Shown piece by piece: positions 109 through 5,669 of a stretch of DNA of 5,669 bases; positions within the stretch are counted from its first letter, which is position 1; each line of letters opens with the position of its first letter. The position numbers and the translations under genes were made by a program. The notes under the pieces were generated by a model that did no database searches, had not been told where the DNA came from, and saw only the letters and a program-made list of their open reading frames with translations. This DNA comes from a virus, in the IMG/VR virus record IMGVR_UViG_3300045988_000381, positions 1 to 5,669 of that record; one strand, 5' to 3'.

Positions 109-213
109 TTAGTGCTTGTCGTGTAGCACGTGATAGATCTGGTCCAGTTTTTCCAGGATCTCGCGCATTACTGCAATTGCAGCTTTCAGGTCTTTGATGG
201 TTATTAGTGCCAT
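109..213 (-). CDS. Hypothetical 34-aa protein (MALITIKDLKAAIAVMREILEKLDQIYHVLHDKH), translationally coupled to the peptidase gene
   Basis: Hand translation gives ATG 213..211 and TAA 111..109. A strong SD, AAGGGGG (G-run 225..221), sits 7 nt upstream inside the last peptidase codons. The peptidase stop (218..216) is 2 nt from this ATG. The ORF is below the ORF-track length cutoff, and I recognise no family. Confidence 0.5.
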   Translation of the reverse strand: MALITIKDLKAAIAVMREILEKLDQIYHVLHDKH

Positions 214-215
214 TT

Positions 216-608
216 TTACACCCCCTTTCTGTATGTTTTGGTACGTGTGTCGATGTGTACCCATGTATTGTATACGATTATGCCACATCCAAGTGGAATG
301 ATTTTGTTCAGTTTGTTGGCAATTTCTTTTGCGGTCATGCCTCCAATCCGAATGTCTGCCGCCATTCCTCGCATGTGGTATGAGTACTTTGCACCACCTA
401 CCTCTTTATTCCTTGTCGGCGTCCTGTATCCGCTGTTTATGTATACCGGTTTTCCGACTTGGTTTCTAAGGATATCTAGAATGGATACTAAATAGTCATC
501 GATGAAAACTACTTGCGAACCGTCTTTGCACGCAAATTCTCGTACTTTGAAGTGCTGCCCTACTTTTTCATTTGCGTCTGTATCCATGATATAGCATTTG
601 ATCGCCAT
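216..608 (-). CDS. Zinc D-Ala-D-Ala carboxypeptidase-fold peptidoglycan hydrolase, Peptidase_M15_3-like (probable endolysin), 130 aa
   Basis: Signature SGYRTPTRNKEVGGAKYSYHMRGMAADI followed by WVHIDTR, matching the M15 H-x6-D ... H-x-D metal-ligand pattern (H78, D85, H118). SD GAGAGG (622..617) lies 8 nt before the ATG. There is no N-terminal signal peptide or transmembrane segment. Confidence 0.85.
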   Translation of the reverse strand: MAIKCYIMDTDANEKVGQHFKVREFACKDGSQVVFIDDYLVSILDILRNQVGKPVYINSGYRTPTRNKEVGGAKYSYHMRGMAADIRIGGMTAKEIANKLNKIIPLGCGIIVYNTWVHIDTRTKTYRKGV

Positions 609-632
609 GATGTTTACCTCTCTTCGTTTCGT

Positions 633-661
633 ATTTTACCATTTTTTTAATTGCTTGTCAA
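633..661 (-). promoter_or_regulatory. Near-consensus sigma70/sigmaA promoter with extended -10, driving the peptidase gene and probably the whole genome transcript
   Basis: The minus strand reads TTGACA (661..656), a 17-nt spacer AGCAATTAAAAAAATGG (655..639), then TAAAAT (638..633). TGG immediately before the -10 gives the TGn extended -10. An A-rich UP-like tract CAAACCAAAAAACAA lies just upstream (676..662). The predicted start is near 625..628, leaving a leader of about 18 nt that contains the SD. Confidence 0.7.
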
Positions 662-752
662 TTGTTTTTTGGTTTGAATGGCGCTTTAGCGCCTTGCCGT
701 ATGGAGCGTAGCGGAATTCGGCTTAATCCATTCCTTTTTAGCGCTGTGCGCG

Positions 753-791
753 TTTTCAACACTTTCAACACTTTCAACAGGTTTTCAACAA
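753..791. repeat. Iteron cluster A: four copies of TTTCAACA (TGTTGAAA on the coding strand)
   Basis: Exact octamers start at 754, 763, 772 and 783, with spacing 9, 9 and 11 nt. Segment 761..791 is identical to 825..855. Confidence 0.9.
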
Positions 792-824
792 AATGTTGCA
801 CAATGATTTTCGTCATTTTGACGG

Positions 825-866
825 ACTTTCAACACTTTCAACAGGTTTTCAACAATTTTTTCAACG
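825..866. repeat. Iteron cluster B: three copies of TTTCAACA plus one TTTCAACG
   Basis: Octamers start at 827, 836, 847 and 859, with spacing 9, 11 and 12 nt. Segment 825..855 is a perfect 31-bp copy of 761..791, offset by 64 nt. Confidence 0.9.
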
Positions 867-962
867 CTGTTTTTTGCTTGTTTTTAACGTATTATCTTTA
901 TAAATTTATATTTTTTAACTTTTCCACGTACTCTACTACTACGTCTACAACAAGTTAATATA

Positions 963-1008
963 ATATACGCGTGCATGCGTGCGCGTTACGTGCGCGCGTG
1001 CGCGCGTA
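963..1008. repeat. CG-rich alternating purine-pyrimidine tract (24 + 22 nt, one phase shift at T986/T987) with three copies of CGTGCGCG; Z-DNA-prone and hairpin-forming
   Basis: Perfect Pu-Py alternation over 963..986 and Py-Pu over 987..1008. CGTGCGCG occurs at 978..985, 989..996 and 997..1004. Positions 966..985 pair with 989..1008 (16 Watson-Crick pairs plus 4 G.T). Confidence 0.8.
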
Positions 1009-1012
1009 GAGT

Positions 1013-1046
1013 CTAGCCCAGTCCTACTTGATAGGTACTGGGCTAG
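1013..1046. other. Stable stem-loop 10 nt downstream of the VP4 stop (14 bp, one bulge, 5-nt loop); candidate replication or priming signal, or a transcript 3' end structure
   Basis: CTAGCCCAGT (1013..1022) pairs with ACTGGGCTAG (1037..1046). The inner CCTA (1023..1026) pairs with TAGG (1032..1035). T1036 is bulged and the loop is CTTGA (1027..1031). Confidence 0.75.
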
Positions 1047-1055
1047 GTGACACCA

Positions 1056-2075
1056 TTAGAGTGTTCCTTTCTTCTTCGTTTGCTTCTTGATCACCCTTTC
1101 TTTTGTCTTGCATTGCTCTGCAAAGTCTGCATTTTCATACTTTAGCCGGCTTTCTGCTATGGCTGCTGTTTGTCTGTTTTGTTTGATTCTCCATAGCCTT
1201 TGTGGGTTTTCGGTTTCCATCATTTTTTCATAATAACGTGGAATTTGTGCGTGTTTTCCGTTTGTACATTGGATGTATCCTTGTCTCCATATTTTTTCTT
1301 TGTGCTCTTGGTAATAGTGGTCTCCCAGTCCTGGTTTCAGGCTCATACATGCGAACGGCTTTTGTTGGCCTAGTTCGTAGTATTGGTTTGCTTTCTTTCC
1401 GTCTATTTCGTACATTTTTTTCGTGACGTATCCCGCAACATATCTGTATGTTTCTGGTACTGCTTGTGCTATCTGTATTTGACCCATGCCCCATAGATCT
1501 GTTAGCCATTTACTTTTGAAGTATCCGTTGTGTTGTATCTTGTACAGGTGTTTCAGGTCTGTTGGTTTCCATCCATACAATATCATGTGGTAGTGCGGTC
1601 TCGCTGTCTGTTCTCCATACTCTCCCGCTATAAAATAGCGTAATTTGCCCCTGTAAGCCTTTCTGAGACGTTTTAGGAACTTTTGAACGTCAGTATATAG
1701 TAACGTTTGTACGCTTTCAGGCGTTTTTTCTCCCGGCTTCCAGACGTATTGCACTTTTCGCATGAGTTCACCTGTTTTGATGATCATACCTGGTACATGG
1801 TCATCATCATACGTTAGCGTTATAAACCATACTTCTTCTTCTGGATAGTCTCGTGCTTCTAATTCTATACGTGTTGCCCAGTCCTCTCTTTGTCTTATTC
1901 TGCATCCGATGCACTGCCCGCATGGTATCAACATTACATCTTTTCGAAACATTAGGTCTTCATATTTTACCTGTCTTCCCGCTAACTGAGAATAGCGGGA
2001 GAGTGAATACACCCTCCCGCTAATGTCTTTGTCGTTAGGGTTGTACAGCCGTATTAACGGTTTGTAACAACTCAT
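1056..2075 (-). CDS. VP4: Replication initiator protein VP4 (HUH rolling-circle endonuclease, phiX174 gpA-like), 339 aa
   Basis: Motifs present are FITLTY, the HUH motif [10 protein letters not shown], and the double-tyrosine motif YVAGYVTKK (as I recall it, phiX174 gpA has YVAKYVNK). The Cys cluster CGQCIGCR is typical of gokushovirus VP4. The ATGA overlap with the VP2 stop spans 2075..2072. Confidence 0.93.
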
Positions 2076-2965
2076 TTCAGATAGTCACCCGGCTTTCTCT
2101 TTTCTCCATATGATCCTGTTTTGTCTTGTGGTTTCATTTCTCGGCTTTCTCCTGTTTTTGGCTTGTTTCTTCCAGCGCCTCCGGCCGCTCCCGGCACTGT
2201 GTCTTCTGTCTTTTGCATTTGCTTGTATGTTTTGAGTAAATCTTCTGTTAGTTGTTTTGGGCTGCTGTAGCTTGTGCTCATTTGGCTTCCCACGGCTTCA
2301 GCGAGTTGATACCATTGGCTTTGGCTTTCTGATTTGCTGTAATAGCTGTTTGGTACGTTGCCTGACATTGTTGACACGCCCAGTGCACTTGCTGATGGCA
2401 TTCCCATGCTTGCACCTGTAATGGTTGCGCCTGCTCCGCCCGGCGTGCTTGCTCCACCTTGTGCGTATGCTAGGATAGGGTTTAAGCCTGCTTTTTTCAT
2501 GTCTTCTACAGCTCTTTGATAGCTTGTGTTGCTCATGCGCTCTTGGAACTGCCTGTTTGCTAGCGCTTCTGCGCTGTTGTAGTTCATTGCCGCATTTTGC
2601 TCGATATGGTTATAAATGCCCTGCTGGATTGCTCCTAACGTATTATAACCCATCTGGAGTAACATATTTTGGCGGTTTGTTTTGCTCTGGAAGTCGTTTT
2701 GACCGCCTTGCCAATTATAGAATTGTTTTAGGTATTCTTGAATCTGCTGGTCATTAGTTCCACCTTCGCTACTGCTGCTGCTTTGTCCTCCCCCTTGGCT
2801 TTGGCTTTGGTTGAACCCTTGGCTTTGGCTTTGGCTTTGCTGTCCGTATAGTCCTTGAAGGCCTTTTCCTGCTAAGGTCATTGCTCCTGTGATCAGTTGC
2901 GGATTTGCTGCTGCCCATTGTAAGCCTTTTGCAGCTATTCCGCCGATTGTTGATAGTACTCCCAT
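2072..2965 (-). CDS. VP2: Minor capsid / DNA pilot protein VP2, 297 aa
   Basis: Contains the gokushovirus VP2 motif [20 protein letters not shown]. The N-terminus is Gly/Ala-rich, followed by an SQ low-complexity linker. The gene sits between VP1 and VP4. Confidence 0.85.
2792..2840 (-). repeat. Tandem GGCTTT hexamers and a 19-nt direct repeat inside VP2, encoding the (SQ)n/Gly/Ser low-complexity segment
   Basis: CCCTTGGCTTTGGCTTTGG occurs at 2792..2810 and again at 2816..2834, a 24-nt (8-codon) period. It translates to [18 protein letters not shown] (VP2 residues about 43-60). Confidence 0.85.
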
Positions 2966-3003: not shown

Positions 3004-4671
3004 TTACAGTTTATACAGCCCAGGTACGCTGTACAACGGCATGCAGCGTGTGGTTTTGTTCGCCACGCGGATTGCTCCGAAGAATTGCGGCTCGTTCTGT
3101 ACGATGAGTGTTCTTGCGATTTCGGTTTTTTCTTCTGTCATCCATTCCTGAGACAGTGTTGGTACGGTTTTGTAGTTGTCTGCATAGTGCCAGAAGTCCA
3201 ACGTGCCTGTTGCGTTGCTTCTCATGAGGCCGCTTACTCGGTTGGGCTTCATTCGGTAATCGGCCCATGCTTCCTGATAGCCAAATGTCTCTTCGTCACT
3301 TGACGTGCCAGTTAGCATGATTTCCTTTTTCTTTACCGGCTGTTCGCCGAGGTTTGCAAACTGTGGTACGTAGTAGTCCAGACGGTCTATTCTGCTCCAG
3401 AATCGTTCAAGGCCTTGCTGGTACGTTCTGCTGTGACGTACGCACATGACGCCAATAACAAATCCGTGTTCTTCAAAGCTCTTCGTGAAGGAGCTTTCGT
3501 TGATAGGTGTTACGGACATTGCGCCGGTTTCACCAATTGGCGTATCGTTTGCACTCTGCTGTCCGCTTGTCTGCACGATCTGGTTCATTCCAACTCGATA
3601 TCGTCCACCGCCCAGGTATTCCGGAATCTGTACCGTTTTGTCGCTGATGGTTACATTCCACAGTGTCTGTACCTGTTCACGGTATCTACTGCCGCCTCGT
3701 GCCATTGCTTCATAGTACTGCTGCACTGCAATTGCGTTTCGCAATTCGTTGATGGTTGCTGCTGTGATGCTTCCAAGGTCTGTTCCGAGATATGCCGTTT
3801 CGGTGCTTTGAAGCGAGGTGCTCGATACTATTGCCGGTCTTTTTCCGGCTGTTTCTACCGTATTGTAAATTTCTCCGTTCTGGTACAGTTTGATTGTGTC
3901 TGCTCCAGCCTTTTCTTGGGTCAGTCCGATATCTTCATACAGTTTTACTGCCGCATTGCCTTGCATTGGTAGTGCCACTTCCGGCCCTCGCTGAGGATAA
4001 GGCAAACAGCTCGAAAAGTAGTCGTGGAAACGGTTCACAGGCAGGCAAAAGCCTCCTTTGATTGCGTTTTTCAGAATCGTTTCTAGGCTTACCCCTTCTT
4101 CTGACCCTCCTGTTCCTCCTCCTACCGCAAACTCTTGGTTTGCGCTTTTTGTTTCTAACACTGCTTCATTTTCTACGTTTTGATCTCTGAAAAATTCGTT
4201 CCAGATCTTTACGTATGCTCTTACTGGCAATGCGTTGACGCTGAATGTTCCTTTAACTTTTGTCGGAATTCCCATGTAGTCCAGTATTGTTCGTTCGTAC
4301 GGTTTTGGCTGTTCGTTTGTTCCTTTGATTACGATTTGCGGTACACTGTACGTTGTTGTGGGCATCCATGGCTTATTATCCACTTCCCCCATGAACCGTT
4401 TGAAGTCGTCCCACAGGATACGGTTTGGACAATAGAAGTAGTAGAAATCGATGAAAGCGTCATCCATCACCGGATATTTCGGTGTGGTCATGCGGATGAT
4501 TGCACTCGTATCGATTTGGAATGTGTCTCCCGGCAACACCTCGTCTACAAAGAACGGAATAAGTTTGCCGCTGTCGAATGTGGTCAGAATTGTCTGATCA
4601 CGGTTGAATCGTGTTCGGCTTGTGTGCATCTGCGGCACTTGCAAGAAGTGTCTTTCATTGTTTCTATTCAT
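3004..4671 (-). CDS. VP1: Major capsid protein VP1 (Microviridae F-like capsid protein), 555 aa
   Basis: The N-terminal region [12 protein letters not shown] ... [24 protein letters not shown] matches the conserved microvirus capsid pattern. The size is typical of gokushovirus VP1. SD AAAGGAGTG lies upstream, and the ATGA overlap with the VP3 stop spans 4671..4668. Confidence 0.95.
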
Positions 4672-5439: not shown

Positions 5440-5650
5440 CGGTGTACTCCCTTCTGATCAGTTCCATTTCGATTGCGTTTGCAAAACTTTTCTCCCGCCA
5501 GATTTCTTCCAGCACAATTTTTGCATCTTCTATGTTGCTTAGCTTTCGTAGCATTTTATATCCAGCGTTGATTTCTTTGTATTTTTTTTCAAGGAGGCGT
5601 TTTAGTGATTCTTCGGGCTGGTCTCGTATATTCCATGTTTTGTGCATCAT
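5423..5650 (-). CDS. Hypothetical 75-aa protein, predicted all-helical, charged, no transmembrane segment; spans the circular junction
   Basis: The ORF begins MMHKTW with an SD AAAGGAA 8 nt upstream (seen in the copy at 71..84). Its 3' end is coupled to the basic-protein gene. I recognise no family. Confidence 0.55.
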   Translation of the reverse strand: MMHKTWNIRDQPEESLKRLLEKKYKEINAGYKMLRKLSNIEDAKIVLEEIWREKSFANAIEMELIRREYTDGTAS

Positions 5651-5669
5651 TGTTGTGTTCCTTTCCAGG
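5581..5669. repeat. Terminal redundancy, copy 2 (identical to 1..89)
   Basis: Same comparison as for copy 1. Confidence 0.95.

Follow-up and report, generated by a model that had tools for sequence, protein, structure and literature searches.

Gokushoviruses are among the most abundant gut phages, and to our knowledge their replication origins are undefined and their hosts almost all unknown. The window analyzed here is the whole 5,669-nucleotide stretch of IMG/VR record IMGVR_UViG_3300045988_000381, a circular gokushovirus genome of ~5580 nt in which positions 1-89 are repeated at 5581-5669 as an 89-nt terminal overlap. All genes of the window, and every long open reading frame (ORF), lie on the minus strand. 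A sole long non-coding gap, at positions 609-1055, separates the gene for VP4, the HUH rolling-circle initiator (Rep), from that for an M15 peptidase. What does this gap do? A preliminary description of the sequence viewed it as one origin built on iterons, with a promoter attached. The gap and its modules are indeed found where that description placed them, apart from an AT-rich segment considered below, but the region holds two different origin-like elements rather than one iteron origin. On balance we favor the view that the gap is a composite replication-control region, comprising a rolling-circle origin for VP4, a DnaA-dependent mimic of a bacterial chromosomal origin (oriC) and a promoter for the M15 lysis gene.

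A module with the architecture of host chromosomal origins

The most distinctive feature of the gap is a set of eight TTTCAACA repeats at 754-866, seven exact and one with a single mismatch, all on the plus strand and arranged as two four-copy blocks in a 64-nt register. The eight repeats were already recognized in the preliminary description, although they are boxes of the host DnaA type and not iterons for a phage Rep. All nine DnaA-box-like 9-mers of the genome fall at 753-928, whereas dinucleotide shuffles contain 0.84 on average and 4 at most. The ninth, proximal box TTTTCCACG differs from the DnaA-box consensus TTATCCACA at two positions. The eight distal boxes stand 55-170 bp away from it, which corresponds to the distal subregion of Bacillus subtilis incC, an origin region whose proximal and distal box subregions are both needed (Richardson 2019, PMC6669920).

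Downstream of the proximal box, the sequence has the organization of a basal origin unwinding system. Such a unit is defined (Pelliciari 2021, PMC8287927) as a DnaA box separated by no more than 16 bp from a run of three or more DnaA-trios, each 3′-NAN-5′ with 3′-GAT-5′ preferred, and we scored the window by this definition. Three CTA triplets at 933-941 begin 4 nt past the box, and their polarity is that seen in six host origins. As scored, the box-spacer-trio core is found once in the genome and in none of 2000 dinucleotide shuffles. The AT-only run that follows the trios provides the expected AT-rich region, though it is shorter than those of the hosts. An unwinding role had earlier been assigned to an AT-rich segment at 867-962. 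That position is wrong, in that 867-919 is a spacer, but the role itself fits the trios and AT run at 933-967. A match to the pMV158-type nick motif TACTACG at 936-942 was judged to be a by-product of the CTA trios. CGCGCAC motifs lie on both sides of the 214-nt module, and AACGCGCAC is found on its far side in nearly all relatives.

Where else does this arrangement occur? A query pattern of three TTTCAACA copies separated by 1-4-nt gaps, for which chance predicts ~0.07 matches in 596 Gb, matches at least 120 bacterial contigs, and roughly half of these come from Ruminococcus, Oscillospiraceae or other Clostridia. For 13 of these 120 arrays, dnaA or dnaN is no more than 1.5 kb away, and 12 of the 13 belong to the Ruminococcus/Oscillospiraceae/Clostridia group. 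In these genomes, dense TTTCAACA clusters are mixed with the canonical DnaA-box core TTTTCCACA. Pfam searches of the flanking ORFs identify DnaA upstream at six of six loci and the beta clamp DnaN downstream at all four loci checked for it. Thus, the clusters sit in the dnaA-dnaN gap, the chromosomal origin of Firmicutes. VP4 is absent from all 120 bacterial array loci.

The host dnaA-dnaN gaps contain 5-23 TTTCAACA boxes (17-23 in four of five loci, 5 in the fifth) and 0-9 canonical boxes. Two to five further TTTCAACA copies lie upstream of dnaA where the locus covers that flank, and at most one is inside dnaA. Judged by these counts, TTTCAACA is probably the main origin box of these bacteria, and in several of their origins the DnaA-trios directly adjoin a copy of it. 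At the end of four of the five complete host gaps, a box is followed by a 4-nt spacer (cccc, gccc or tacc) and then by (CTA)5 and AT-rich DNA, and the phage module shares this order, orientation and 4-nt spacer. The proximal box of relatives of the window, TTTTCCACA/T or TTTTCAACA, is identical to boxes in the host gaps. The claim that the region resembles the origin of a chromosome or plasmid in its layout, and also has a promoter, is therefore strongly borne out by the match of its box, trio and AT unit to dnaA-dnaN origins. However, similarity to any host origin is confined to the 30-60-nt box arrays. This rules out a recent capture of a host origin and indicates mimicry at the level of motifs.

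We propose that the module acts on the double-stranded replicative form. Host DnaA in its ATP-bound form (DnaA-ATP) would occupy the proximal box and all eight distal ones, then oligomerize onto the adjacent trios and open the short AT-rich stretch, and so let the host helicase and replisome enter in a DnaA-dependent manner. The trans-acting factor for the repeats is likely to be host DnaA rather than VP4. The most plausible use of such an oriC mimic would be to amplify the replicative form or to maintain it in a plasmid-like state.

The preliminary description would have been refuted by a lack of conservation in close relatives, but the region is conserved in them. The gap is matched in 53 gut gokushoviruses in GenBank (human, pig, monkey) and conserved in at least 70 IMG/VR relatives. 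In several of the GenBank relatives its identity of 86-88% exceeds that of coding sequence (~80%), and in 80 IMG/VR loci VP4 is 87-99% identical. The repeat is present in 4-9 copies in each of the 55 relatives whose VP4-to-peptidase interval is complete. Position-wise identity reaches 97-100% in the hairpin loop described below, ACTTGTTGTA, the repeats and AAACGCGCAC. Specifically, the box, spacer, first three trios and AT run are present in 65 of 65 aligned relatives, those with the inverted module among them, with an AT run of the TTA(A)TATA(A/T)TA type after the trios in every one. CTACTACTA is intact in 62 of the 65 (two have one substitution and one a rearranged array), and CTACAACAAG is identical in 64. 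The fourth trio varies freely, as does the sequence of the 4-nt spacer. In most relatives the degenerate proximal box TTTTTAAC is replaced by TTTTCAAC, yielding a tandem proximal box TTTTCAAC-TTTTCCACN. The palindrome TATAAATTTATA at 899-910 is present as previously noted, but is restricted to the closest subclade.

The relatives also include a natural rearrangement. In six loci (L002, L005, L019, L026, L027 and L030), a 214-nt segment (~752-965) carrying the AT-rich stretch and the repeats is flipped relative to VP4. Every module element is retained, the hairpin and right flank keep their orientation, and the breakpoints fall within the bracketing CGCGCAC-type motifs. These loci form one diverged monophyletic clade in a tree of the segment (73-82% versus 84-92% identity), which indicates a single old inversion rather than active switching. 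Because the module remains intact in the inverted clade, we conclude that the 214-nt segment acts on double-stranded DNA as an autonomous unit working in either orientation, which fits an element that is not strand-specific.

Might the gap instead encode a small protein or a structured RNA, or serve as an integration site or an invertible switch? Its ORFs of 52 and 98 codons (658-816 on the minus strand, 662-958 on the plus strand) and the inverted segment are compatible with such roles. However, neither ORF matches a Pfam family, and the longest ORF of the interval differs in length and strand among 55 relatives. A search of the gap with all Rfam families (E up to 1) returned only a sub-threshold microRNA match in the CG tract (29.7 bits versus a gathering score of 100), and a tRNA/tmRNA scan of the gap returned none. 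An exact 28-mer scan of 185,579 species genomes found one free, microvirus-sized 5.7-kb contig and no prophage copy. An active invertible DNA switch is rejected on the grounds that the inverted genomes are one old clade and no recombinase is encoded. Attachment through XerCD/dif, which uses a 28-bp motif in the Enterogokushovirus model (PMC7062461), is likewise rejected for lack of an integrated copy; by eye, with no formal dif profile run, the best match to a XerD arm is 9 of 11 positions and there is no XerC arm. We therefore find this group of explanations hardly credible.

A second example comes from a distant gokushovirus. In phi-CA82 (NC_015785, L316), a DnaA-box cluster, (CTA)6 and AT-rich DNA occupy positions 3685-3850, directly after the Rep stop codon. 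The order there is TGTGGATAA, two copies of TTATCCACA, TTATCAACA, then GTTTCAACA abutting (CTA)6, then AT-rich DNA. Compared with the window, this module uses canonical TTATCCACA boxes, has zero spacer and lies on the sense strand, and the VP4 of its genome is 29% identical. It is annotated as ORF p4 (3674-3889), in which the trios translate as LLLLLL; this ORF is probably spurious. The module goes unmentioned in the phi-CA82 paper. Of 18 other gokushoviruses sampled, phi-CA82 alone has an analogous box array. A search of IMG/VR with the canonical box-plus-trio pattern gave 17 matches, none of them on a microvirus-sized contig, the contigs being 8 kb or longer in every case.

Several considerations weigh against a DnaA-dependent origin in the gap. 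We know of no rolling-circle phage that needs DnaA, and the identification of TTTCAACA as a DnaA box comes from its position and context. The AT-only run is short (13 nt) and has a GC-rich tract at its border, so that opening may be limited to ~35 nt, which would be marginal for helicase loading. The cumulative GC skew falls monotonically round the genome with no switch at the module; bidirectional replication thus leaves no compositional trace. Furthermore, 17 of 19 sampled gokushovirus lineages have no such module, which makes it accessory rather than core.

The main alternative is that the DNA binds DnaA while no origin fires. As a decoy, the box array on a multi-copy replicative form would titrate host DnaA, like datA or the DnaA-box clusters of B. 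subtilis, and would delay or block initiation of the host chromosome or perturb DnaA-regulated genes. Nine host-type boxes per genome copy (4-9 are kept among relatives), a module that is orientation-independent and its accessory status among gokushoviruses are all compatible with this. Yet titration needs boxes only, and the trios, 4-nt spacing and AT run are near-unchanged in 65 of 65 relatives, which argues for selection on unwinding and not on binding alone. The box-trio-AT pattern also recurs in phi-CA82. We consequently judge a decoy unlikely, and retain an unwinding origin as the preferred explanation for the module.

A CTTG-loop hairpin beside VP4 and its strand polarity

The second origin-like element is the hairpin that follows VP4. 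Its existence had been reported in the preliminary description, and it stands up to scrutiny: the perfect 10-bp arms with two further pairs fold at -13.2 kcal/mol (z = -4.0), and none of 200 shuffles folds as well. In most relatives, 11-13 of the 13 arm positions pair. The stem shows compensatory changes (CCC/GGG to CCA/TGG in ~17 loci, and also CCT/AGG and GTGCC/GGCAC), and the loop TACTTGATA (1025-1033, plus strand) is invariant in 77 of 80 loci. Within this loop, CTTGATA at 1027-1033 on the plus strand, 23 nt from the VP4 stop codon, contains the nick core CTTG/ATA of the phiX174/pC194 type. The plus-strand loop reads TACTTG/ATA, the opposite strand of the hairpin is TATCAAGTA, and the nick is predicted to fall between G1030 and A1031 on the plus strand.

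The same core is found in well-known origins. The pC194/pUB110 origin core, ...TTATCTTGATA, contains CTTGATA, and the phiX174 origin is CAACTTGATATTAATAAC, with CAACTTG/ATA. The gap had been described as unlike phiX174, a statement that is too simple: the loop TACTTGATA holds the nick core of phiX174 and pC194, and the element is common to distant gokushoviruses. Analogous hairpins lie by VP4 in CPG1, Dulem161, mar30, OP971936, MG945540, PQ006695, MG945319, MG945145 and phi-CA82. Their long stems are of unrelated sequence, their loops carry (A)CTTG(A/T)T, and GTGAC(ACC) usually follows. In Dulem161, mar30 and OP971936, whose VP4 proteins are 33-41% identical, the CTTG-loop hairpin is followed by GTGACACC, as it is in the window. 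A relaxed hairpin search on both strands of nine further genomes found no origin-like element, a result that is uninformative rather than contradictory. Direct GTGTCA repeats (GGTGTCAC), in 1-3 copies depending on the relative, lie on the coding strand between the VP4 stop codon and the hairpin (1047-1055 in the window; also e.g. L004, L032 and L039), and are a candidate Rep-binding site. The hairpin is the best candidate for the VP4 rolling-circle origin. In the mechanism we envisage, VP4 would nick the loop at CTTG/ATA to start and end rolling-circle synthesis.

Given this neighbor, do the eight repeats nonetheless bind VP4, in a classical iteron origin such as those of pMV158, geminiviruses and iteron plasmids? 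They are direct repeats near a nick-site hairpin and adjoin a rep gene. However, host chromosomal origins, which have no VP4 gene, are filled with this 8-mer in an identical arrangement, and distant gokushoviruses with the hairpin have no such repeats. Iteron plasmids use 17-22-bp repeats and their own RepA-type initiator, whereas the repeats here are 8-9 bp and the sole initiator is an HUH Rep. The distance and orientation of the repeats relative to the hairpin also vary (inserts of up to ~190 nt, inverted clade), and right beside the hairpin, GTGACACC and its GTGTCA repeats make a better candidate for the Rep site. An iteron origin is thus very improbable. The same variation in distance and orientation argues against a tight mechanical coupling of hairpin and oriC-like module.

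Most relatives carry an extra 50-190-nt insert between hairpin and CG tract (e.g. ~45-145 of the L005 intergenic region), and some of these inserts contain a GC hairpin resembling a terminator, AAAAGGGGTTGAC...GTCAACCCCTT. The minimal form of this interval is that of the window and L001. In L014, an 8781-nt contig, unrelated sequence follows the conserved hairpin and the module is not found within 2.5 kb; this locus is either a large insertion or a chimeric assembly.

The strand that bears the nick motif raises a further question. In the window this is the strand antisense to the genes, whose sense strand has an A fraction of 0.376 and a T fraction of 0.172. Across ten independent lineages the hairpin is always on the T-richer strand. 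Specifically, where the sense strand is T-rich or neutral (six genomes, AT skew -0.32 to -0.02), it carries the motif itself; where it is A-rich (four genomes including the window, AT skew +0.28 to +0.37), the motif is found on the antisense strand. The association is perfect (Fisher exact 1 in 210). The simplest reading of these ten lineages is that the packaged strand may be the T-rich strand bearing the nick motif, and that this clade may package antisense DNA.

A more elaborate version joins this polarity to the oriC mimic. The double-stranded form would be a DnaA-dependent mini-chromosome, coupled to the cell cycle and replicated from the oriC mimic, and the outcome would be plasmid-like carriage in Ruminococcus/Oscillospiraceae without integration. 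The strand cut by VP4 at the CTTG/ATA hairpin would be the complement of the mRNAs, and virions would package antisense (negative-sense) DNA. That this clade combines two replication modes with a genome polarity opposite to that of a textbook microvirus is a tentative proposal, which we rate as rather unlikely.

Promoter, flanking elements and gene neighbors

The remaining features of the gap are listed with those above in Table 1. The CG-rich alternating tract of the preliminary description is real. It separates the hairpin from the oriC-like module and is found in 54 of 56 relatives, with a longest alternating run of 21 nt (median) versus 10 nt in shuffles. To the other side of the module, the fixed-orientation element at 666-751 is ~75-98% identical per 10-nt block, and the GC hairpin reported within it is likewise genuine. 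However, the consensus fold of the element lacks covariation and its single-strand folding is no better than that of shuffles (z ~ -1.2), results that speak against a single-strand structure for this right flank.

The promoter proposed earlier also proves sound, with 11 of 12 matches plus a TG extension, the best in the genome. It would drive the M15 lysis gene, and this part of the gap is common only to the ~40% of relatives in which M15 follows directly. The acquisition of M15 by gut gokushoviruses has been described (PMC3394797). No intrinsic terminator is predicted on the coding strand of the gap.

The nearness of the repeats to this promoter brings to mind an operator array, in which DnaA or another host factor acting on TGTTGAAA-like sites (Spo0A-type) couples M15/VP4 expression to growth state. 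The array does lie upstream of the strongest promoter of the genome, the TTGAAA of each box is similar to a -35 hexamer, and the module contains weak promoter-like sites. The Spo0A 0A box is TGTCGAA. Yet the match to it is imperfect, the trios and AT run would have no role, and in the inverted clade and in relatives with inserted genes the distance and orientation of the promoter change while the module stays intact. An operator array is therefore distinctly improbable, and we continue to regard the module as an origin.

The genes around the gap are those of a gokushovirus, and the scaffold VP3 and ORF5 are also recognized with Pfam. The view that the genome is elsewhere free of gaps holds only if a putative 59-aa ORF at 109-288 (minus strand) is a gene; it is the only cover for the 145 nt from the M15 stop codon to the next confident gene, and 71-215 is otherwise uncovered. 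A hexamer tandem repeat, TTGGCT in 7.5 copies at 2795-2839, lies within the VP2 gene and implies a repetitive peptide stretch in the pilot protein.

Table 1. Coordinates of features in and around the non-coding gap of the window, and of CTTG-loop hairpins in other gokushovirus genomes.
Feature	Position	Strand	Description
M15 peptidase (cell-wall hydrolase, probable lysis gene)	216-608	-	Pfam Peptidase_M15_3, E = 3e-22; downstream of promoter
Strong Shine-Dalgarno sequence AGAGAGG	623-617	-	before M15 start codon
Sigma-70/sigmaA-type promoter	661-633 (element 609-661)	-	TTGACA 661-656, 17-nt spacer, TG-extended TAAAAT 638-633
Fixed-orientation conserved element, 86 nt	666-751		three small hairpins; GCGCTAAA twice
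GC hairpin GGCGC-TTTA-GCGCC	680-693		94-98% conserved
GTGCGCGTT	746-754	+	direct repeat of 979-987 (repeat family D7); edge of segment inverted in one clade
Putative distal DnaA-box array, 8 boxes (T/C)TTTCAACA	753-866	+	two blocks of four
Spacer between box blocks, 35 nt	791-825		conserved; within distal array
Degenerate inverted box TGTTGCACA	794-802		in 35-nt inter-block spacer
Palindrome CGTCATTTTGACG	811-823		in 35-nt inter-block spacer
AT-rich spacer, distal to proximal boxes	867-919		63-88% conserved; includes palindrome 899-910
Putative proximal boxes and spacer	912-932	+	degenerate TTTTTAAC, then TTTTCCACG 920-928, then variable 4-nt TACT 929-932
Putative DnaA-trio array CTA CTA CTA CGT CTA CAA CAA G	933-954	+	complement 3′-GAT-5′ x3, then GCA, then GAT
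AT-only run TTAATATAATATA, 13 nt, candidate DNA unwinding element	955-967	+	distal to trios
CG-rich alternating purine/pyrimidine tract (Z-DNA-prone)	968-1008		CGCGCAC-type 8-mers; Tandem Repeats Finder period 8
Hairpin, candidate VP4 rolling-circle double-strand origin	1013-1046	+	perfect 10-bp arms 1013-1022/1037-1046, two more pairs
GTGACACC motif, candidate Rep recognition sequence	1047-1054	+	directly 3′ of hairpin
VP4/Rep (HUH rolling-circle initiator)	1056-2075	-	Pfam REP_ORF2-G2P, E = 2e-17; stop codon abuts gap
VP2	2072-2965	-	
Capsid VP1	3004-4671	-	Pfam
Hairpins on the sense strand	L315 ~3023, L317 ~2924, L318 ~2534, L319 ~2783, L338 ~1730, L339 ~3014	sense	
Hairpins on the antisense strand	L320 ~5228, L340 ~2998, L316 (phi-CA82) ~2472, window 1013-1054 (+)	antisense	

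Host prediction and comparison with known systems

The phage copies the unusual TTTCAACA box and 4-nt spacing of Ruminococcus/Oscillospiraceae origins, which suggests that its host belongs to this group. The sigmaA-type extended -10 promoter and strong Shine-Dalgarno sequence agree with this prediction. TTTCAACA arrays are also seen in three metagenome-assembled genomes (MAGs) of Mesoaciditoga (L107, L142 and L169; Thermotogota), L107 having a box-plus-(CTA)4 unit as well, and the box variant is thus not exclusive to Oscillospirales. A whole microvirus of the clade (L081, CAVKUS010000079.1, 5739 nt) is binned in a MAG labeled Bacteroides sp. CAG:545. This conflicts with an Oscillospirales host; a binning artefact is the probable cause. 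Dense TTTCAACA arrays, with 9-12 copies per 400 nt and no dnaA or dnaN nearby, are also present in viral contigs of 9-77 kb (L255, L257, L266, L302, L303 and L313). Other phages or plasmids of the same hosts may use such box clusters, although some of these arrays are perhaps unrelated tandem repeats.

Literature on Microviridae origins, DnaA and iterons yielded no description of a module like this one; the papers by Kirchberger and by Roux discuss only dif motifs and the acquisition of M15. The element is of a known kind, the DnaA-box/trio unwinding system, in a new setting and a new compact form. If our interpretation is correct, then, as far as the searched literature shows, no unwinding module of the chromosomal type had been described before in a single-stranded DNA (ssDNA) virus. 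The element would offer a concrete mechanism by which a phage uses the host initiator, could bear on long-term persistence in the gut, and provides a sequence-based prediction of Ruminococcus/Oscillospiraceae hosts for the clade. The CTTG-loop hairpin becomes a candidate rolling-circle origin for the subfamily, and its strand raises the possibility of antisense packaging in some microviruses. ORFs called across such modules, e.g. p4 of phi-CA82, are probable mis-annotations.

How does each part of the gap compare with known replication systems? The hairpin shares with the double-strand origins of phiX174 gene A, pC194 and pUB110 a CTTG/ATA core by the gene for an HUH Rep of the same broad family. 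In the phage, by contrast, the core lies in the loop of a 12-14-bp stem (10 perfect pairs plus two in the window) followed by GTGACACC, is intergenic rather than inside rep, and occupies the antisense strand in this clade. In the pMV158 origin (PMC1851628), a nick hairpin is likewise accompanied by a separate direct-repeat array, the 'bind' locus, tens of bp away. The pMV158 repeats bind the plasmid's own RepB, whereas those of the phage match host DnaA boxes and are joined by DnaA-trios.

The oriC-like module has boxes, a short spacer, at least three trios, AT-rich DNA and a distal cluster in common with the basal unwinding system and with Ruminococcus/Oscillospiraceae dnaA-dnaN origins. With the latter it also shares the TTTCAACA/TTTTCCACA box variant, the 4-nt spacer and strand order. 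It differs from them in residing between VP4 and M15 on a 5.6-kb ssDNA phage genome, away from dnaA and dnaN, a location that makes it an oriC mimic and not an oriC. It also has no extended homology to any host origin, and it is compact, with 214 nt, only 3+1 canonical trios, a 13-nt AT run and CG-rich brackets.

Several origins of plasmids and phage-plasmids, including P1 oriR and those of F, pSC101 and RK2, combine DnaA boxes with Rep iterons, and Escherichia coli datA is a DnaA-titration locus. Like the phage module, these are extrachromosomal or non-origin DNAs that draw host DnaA through clustered boxes. However, these replicons each encode an initiator that binds their iterons and lack a DnaA-trio unit, and datA is not a site of unwinding. 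Set beside these systems, the phage module looks like a self-sufficient unwinding unit of the chromosomal type.

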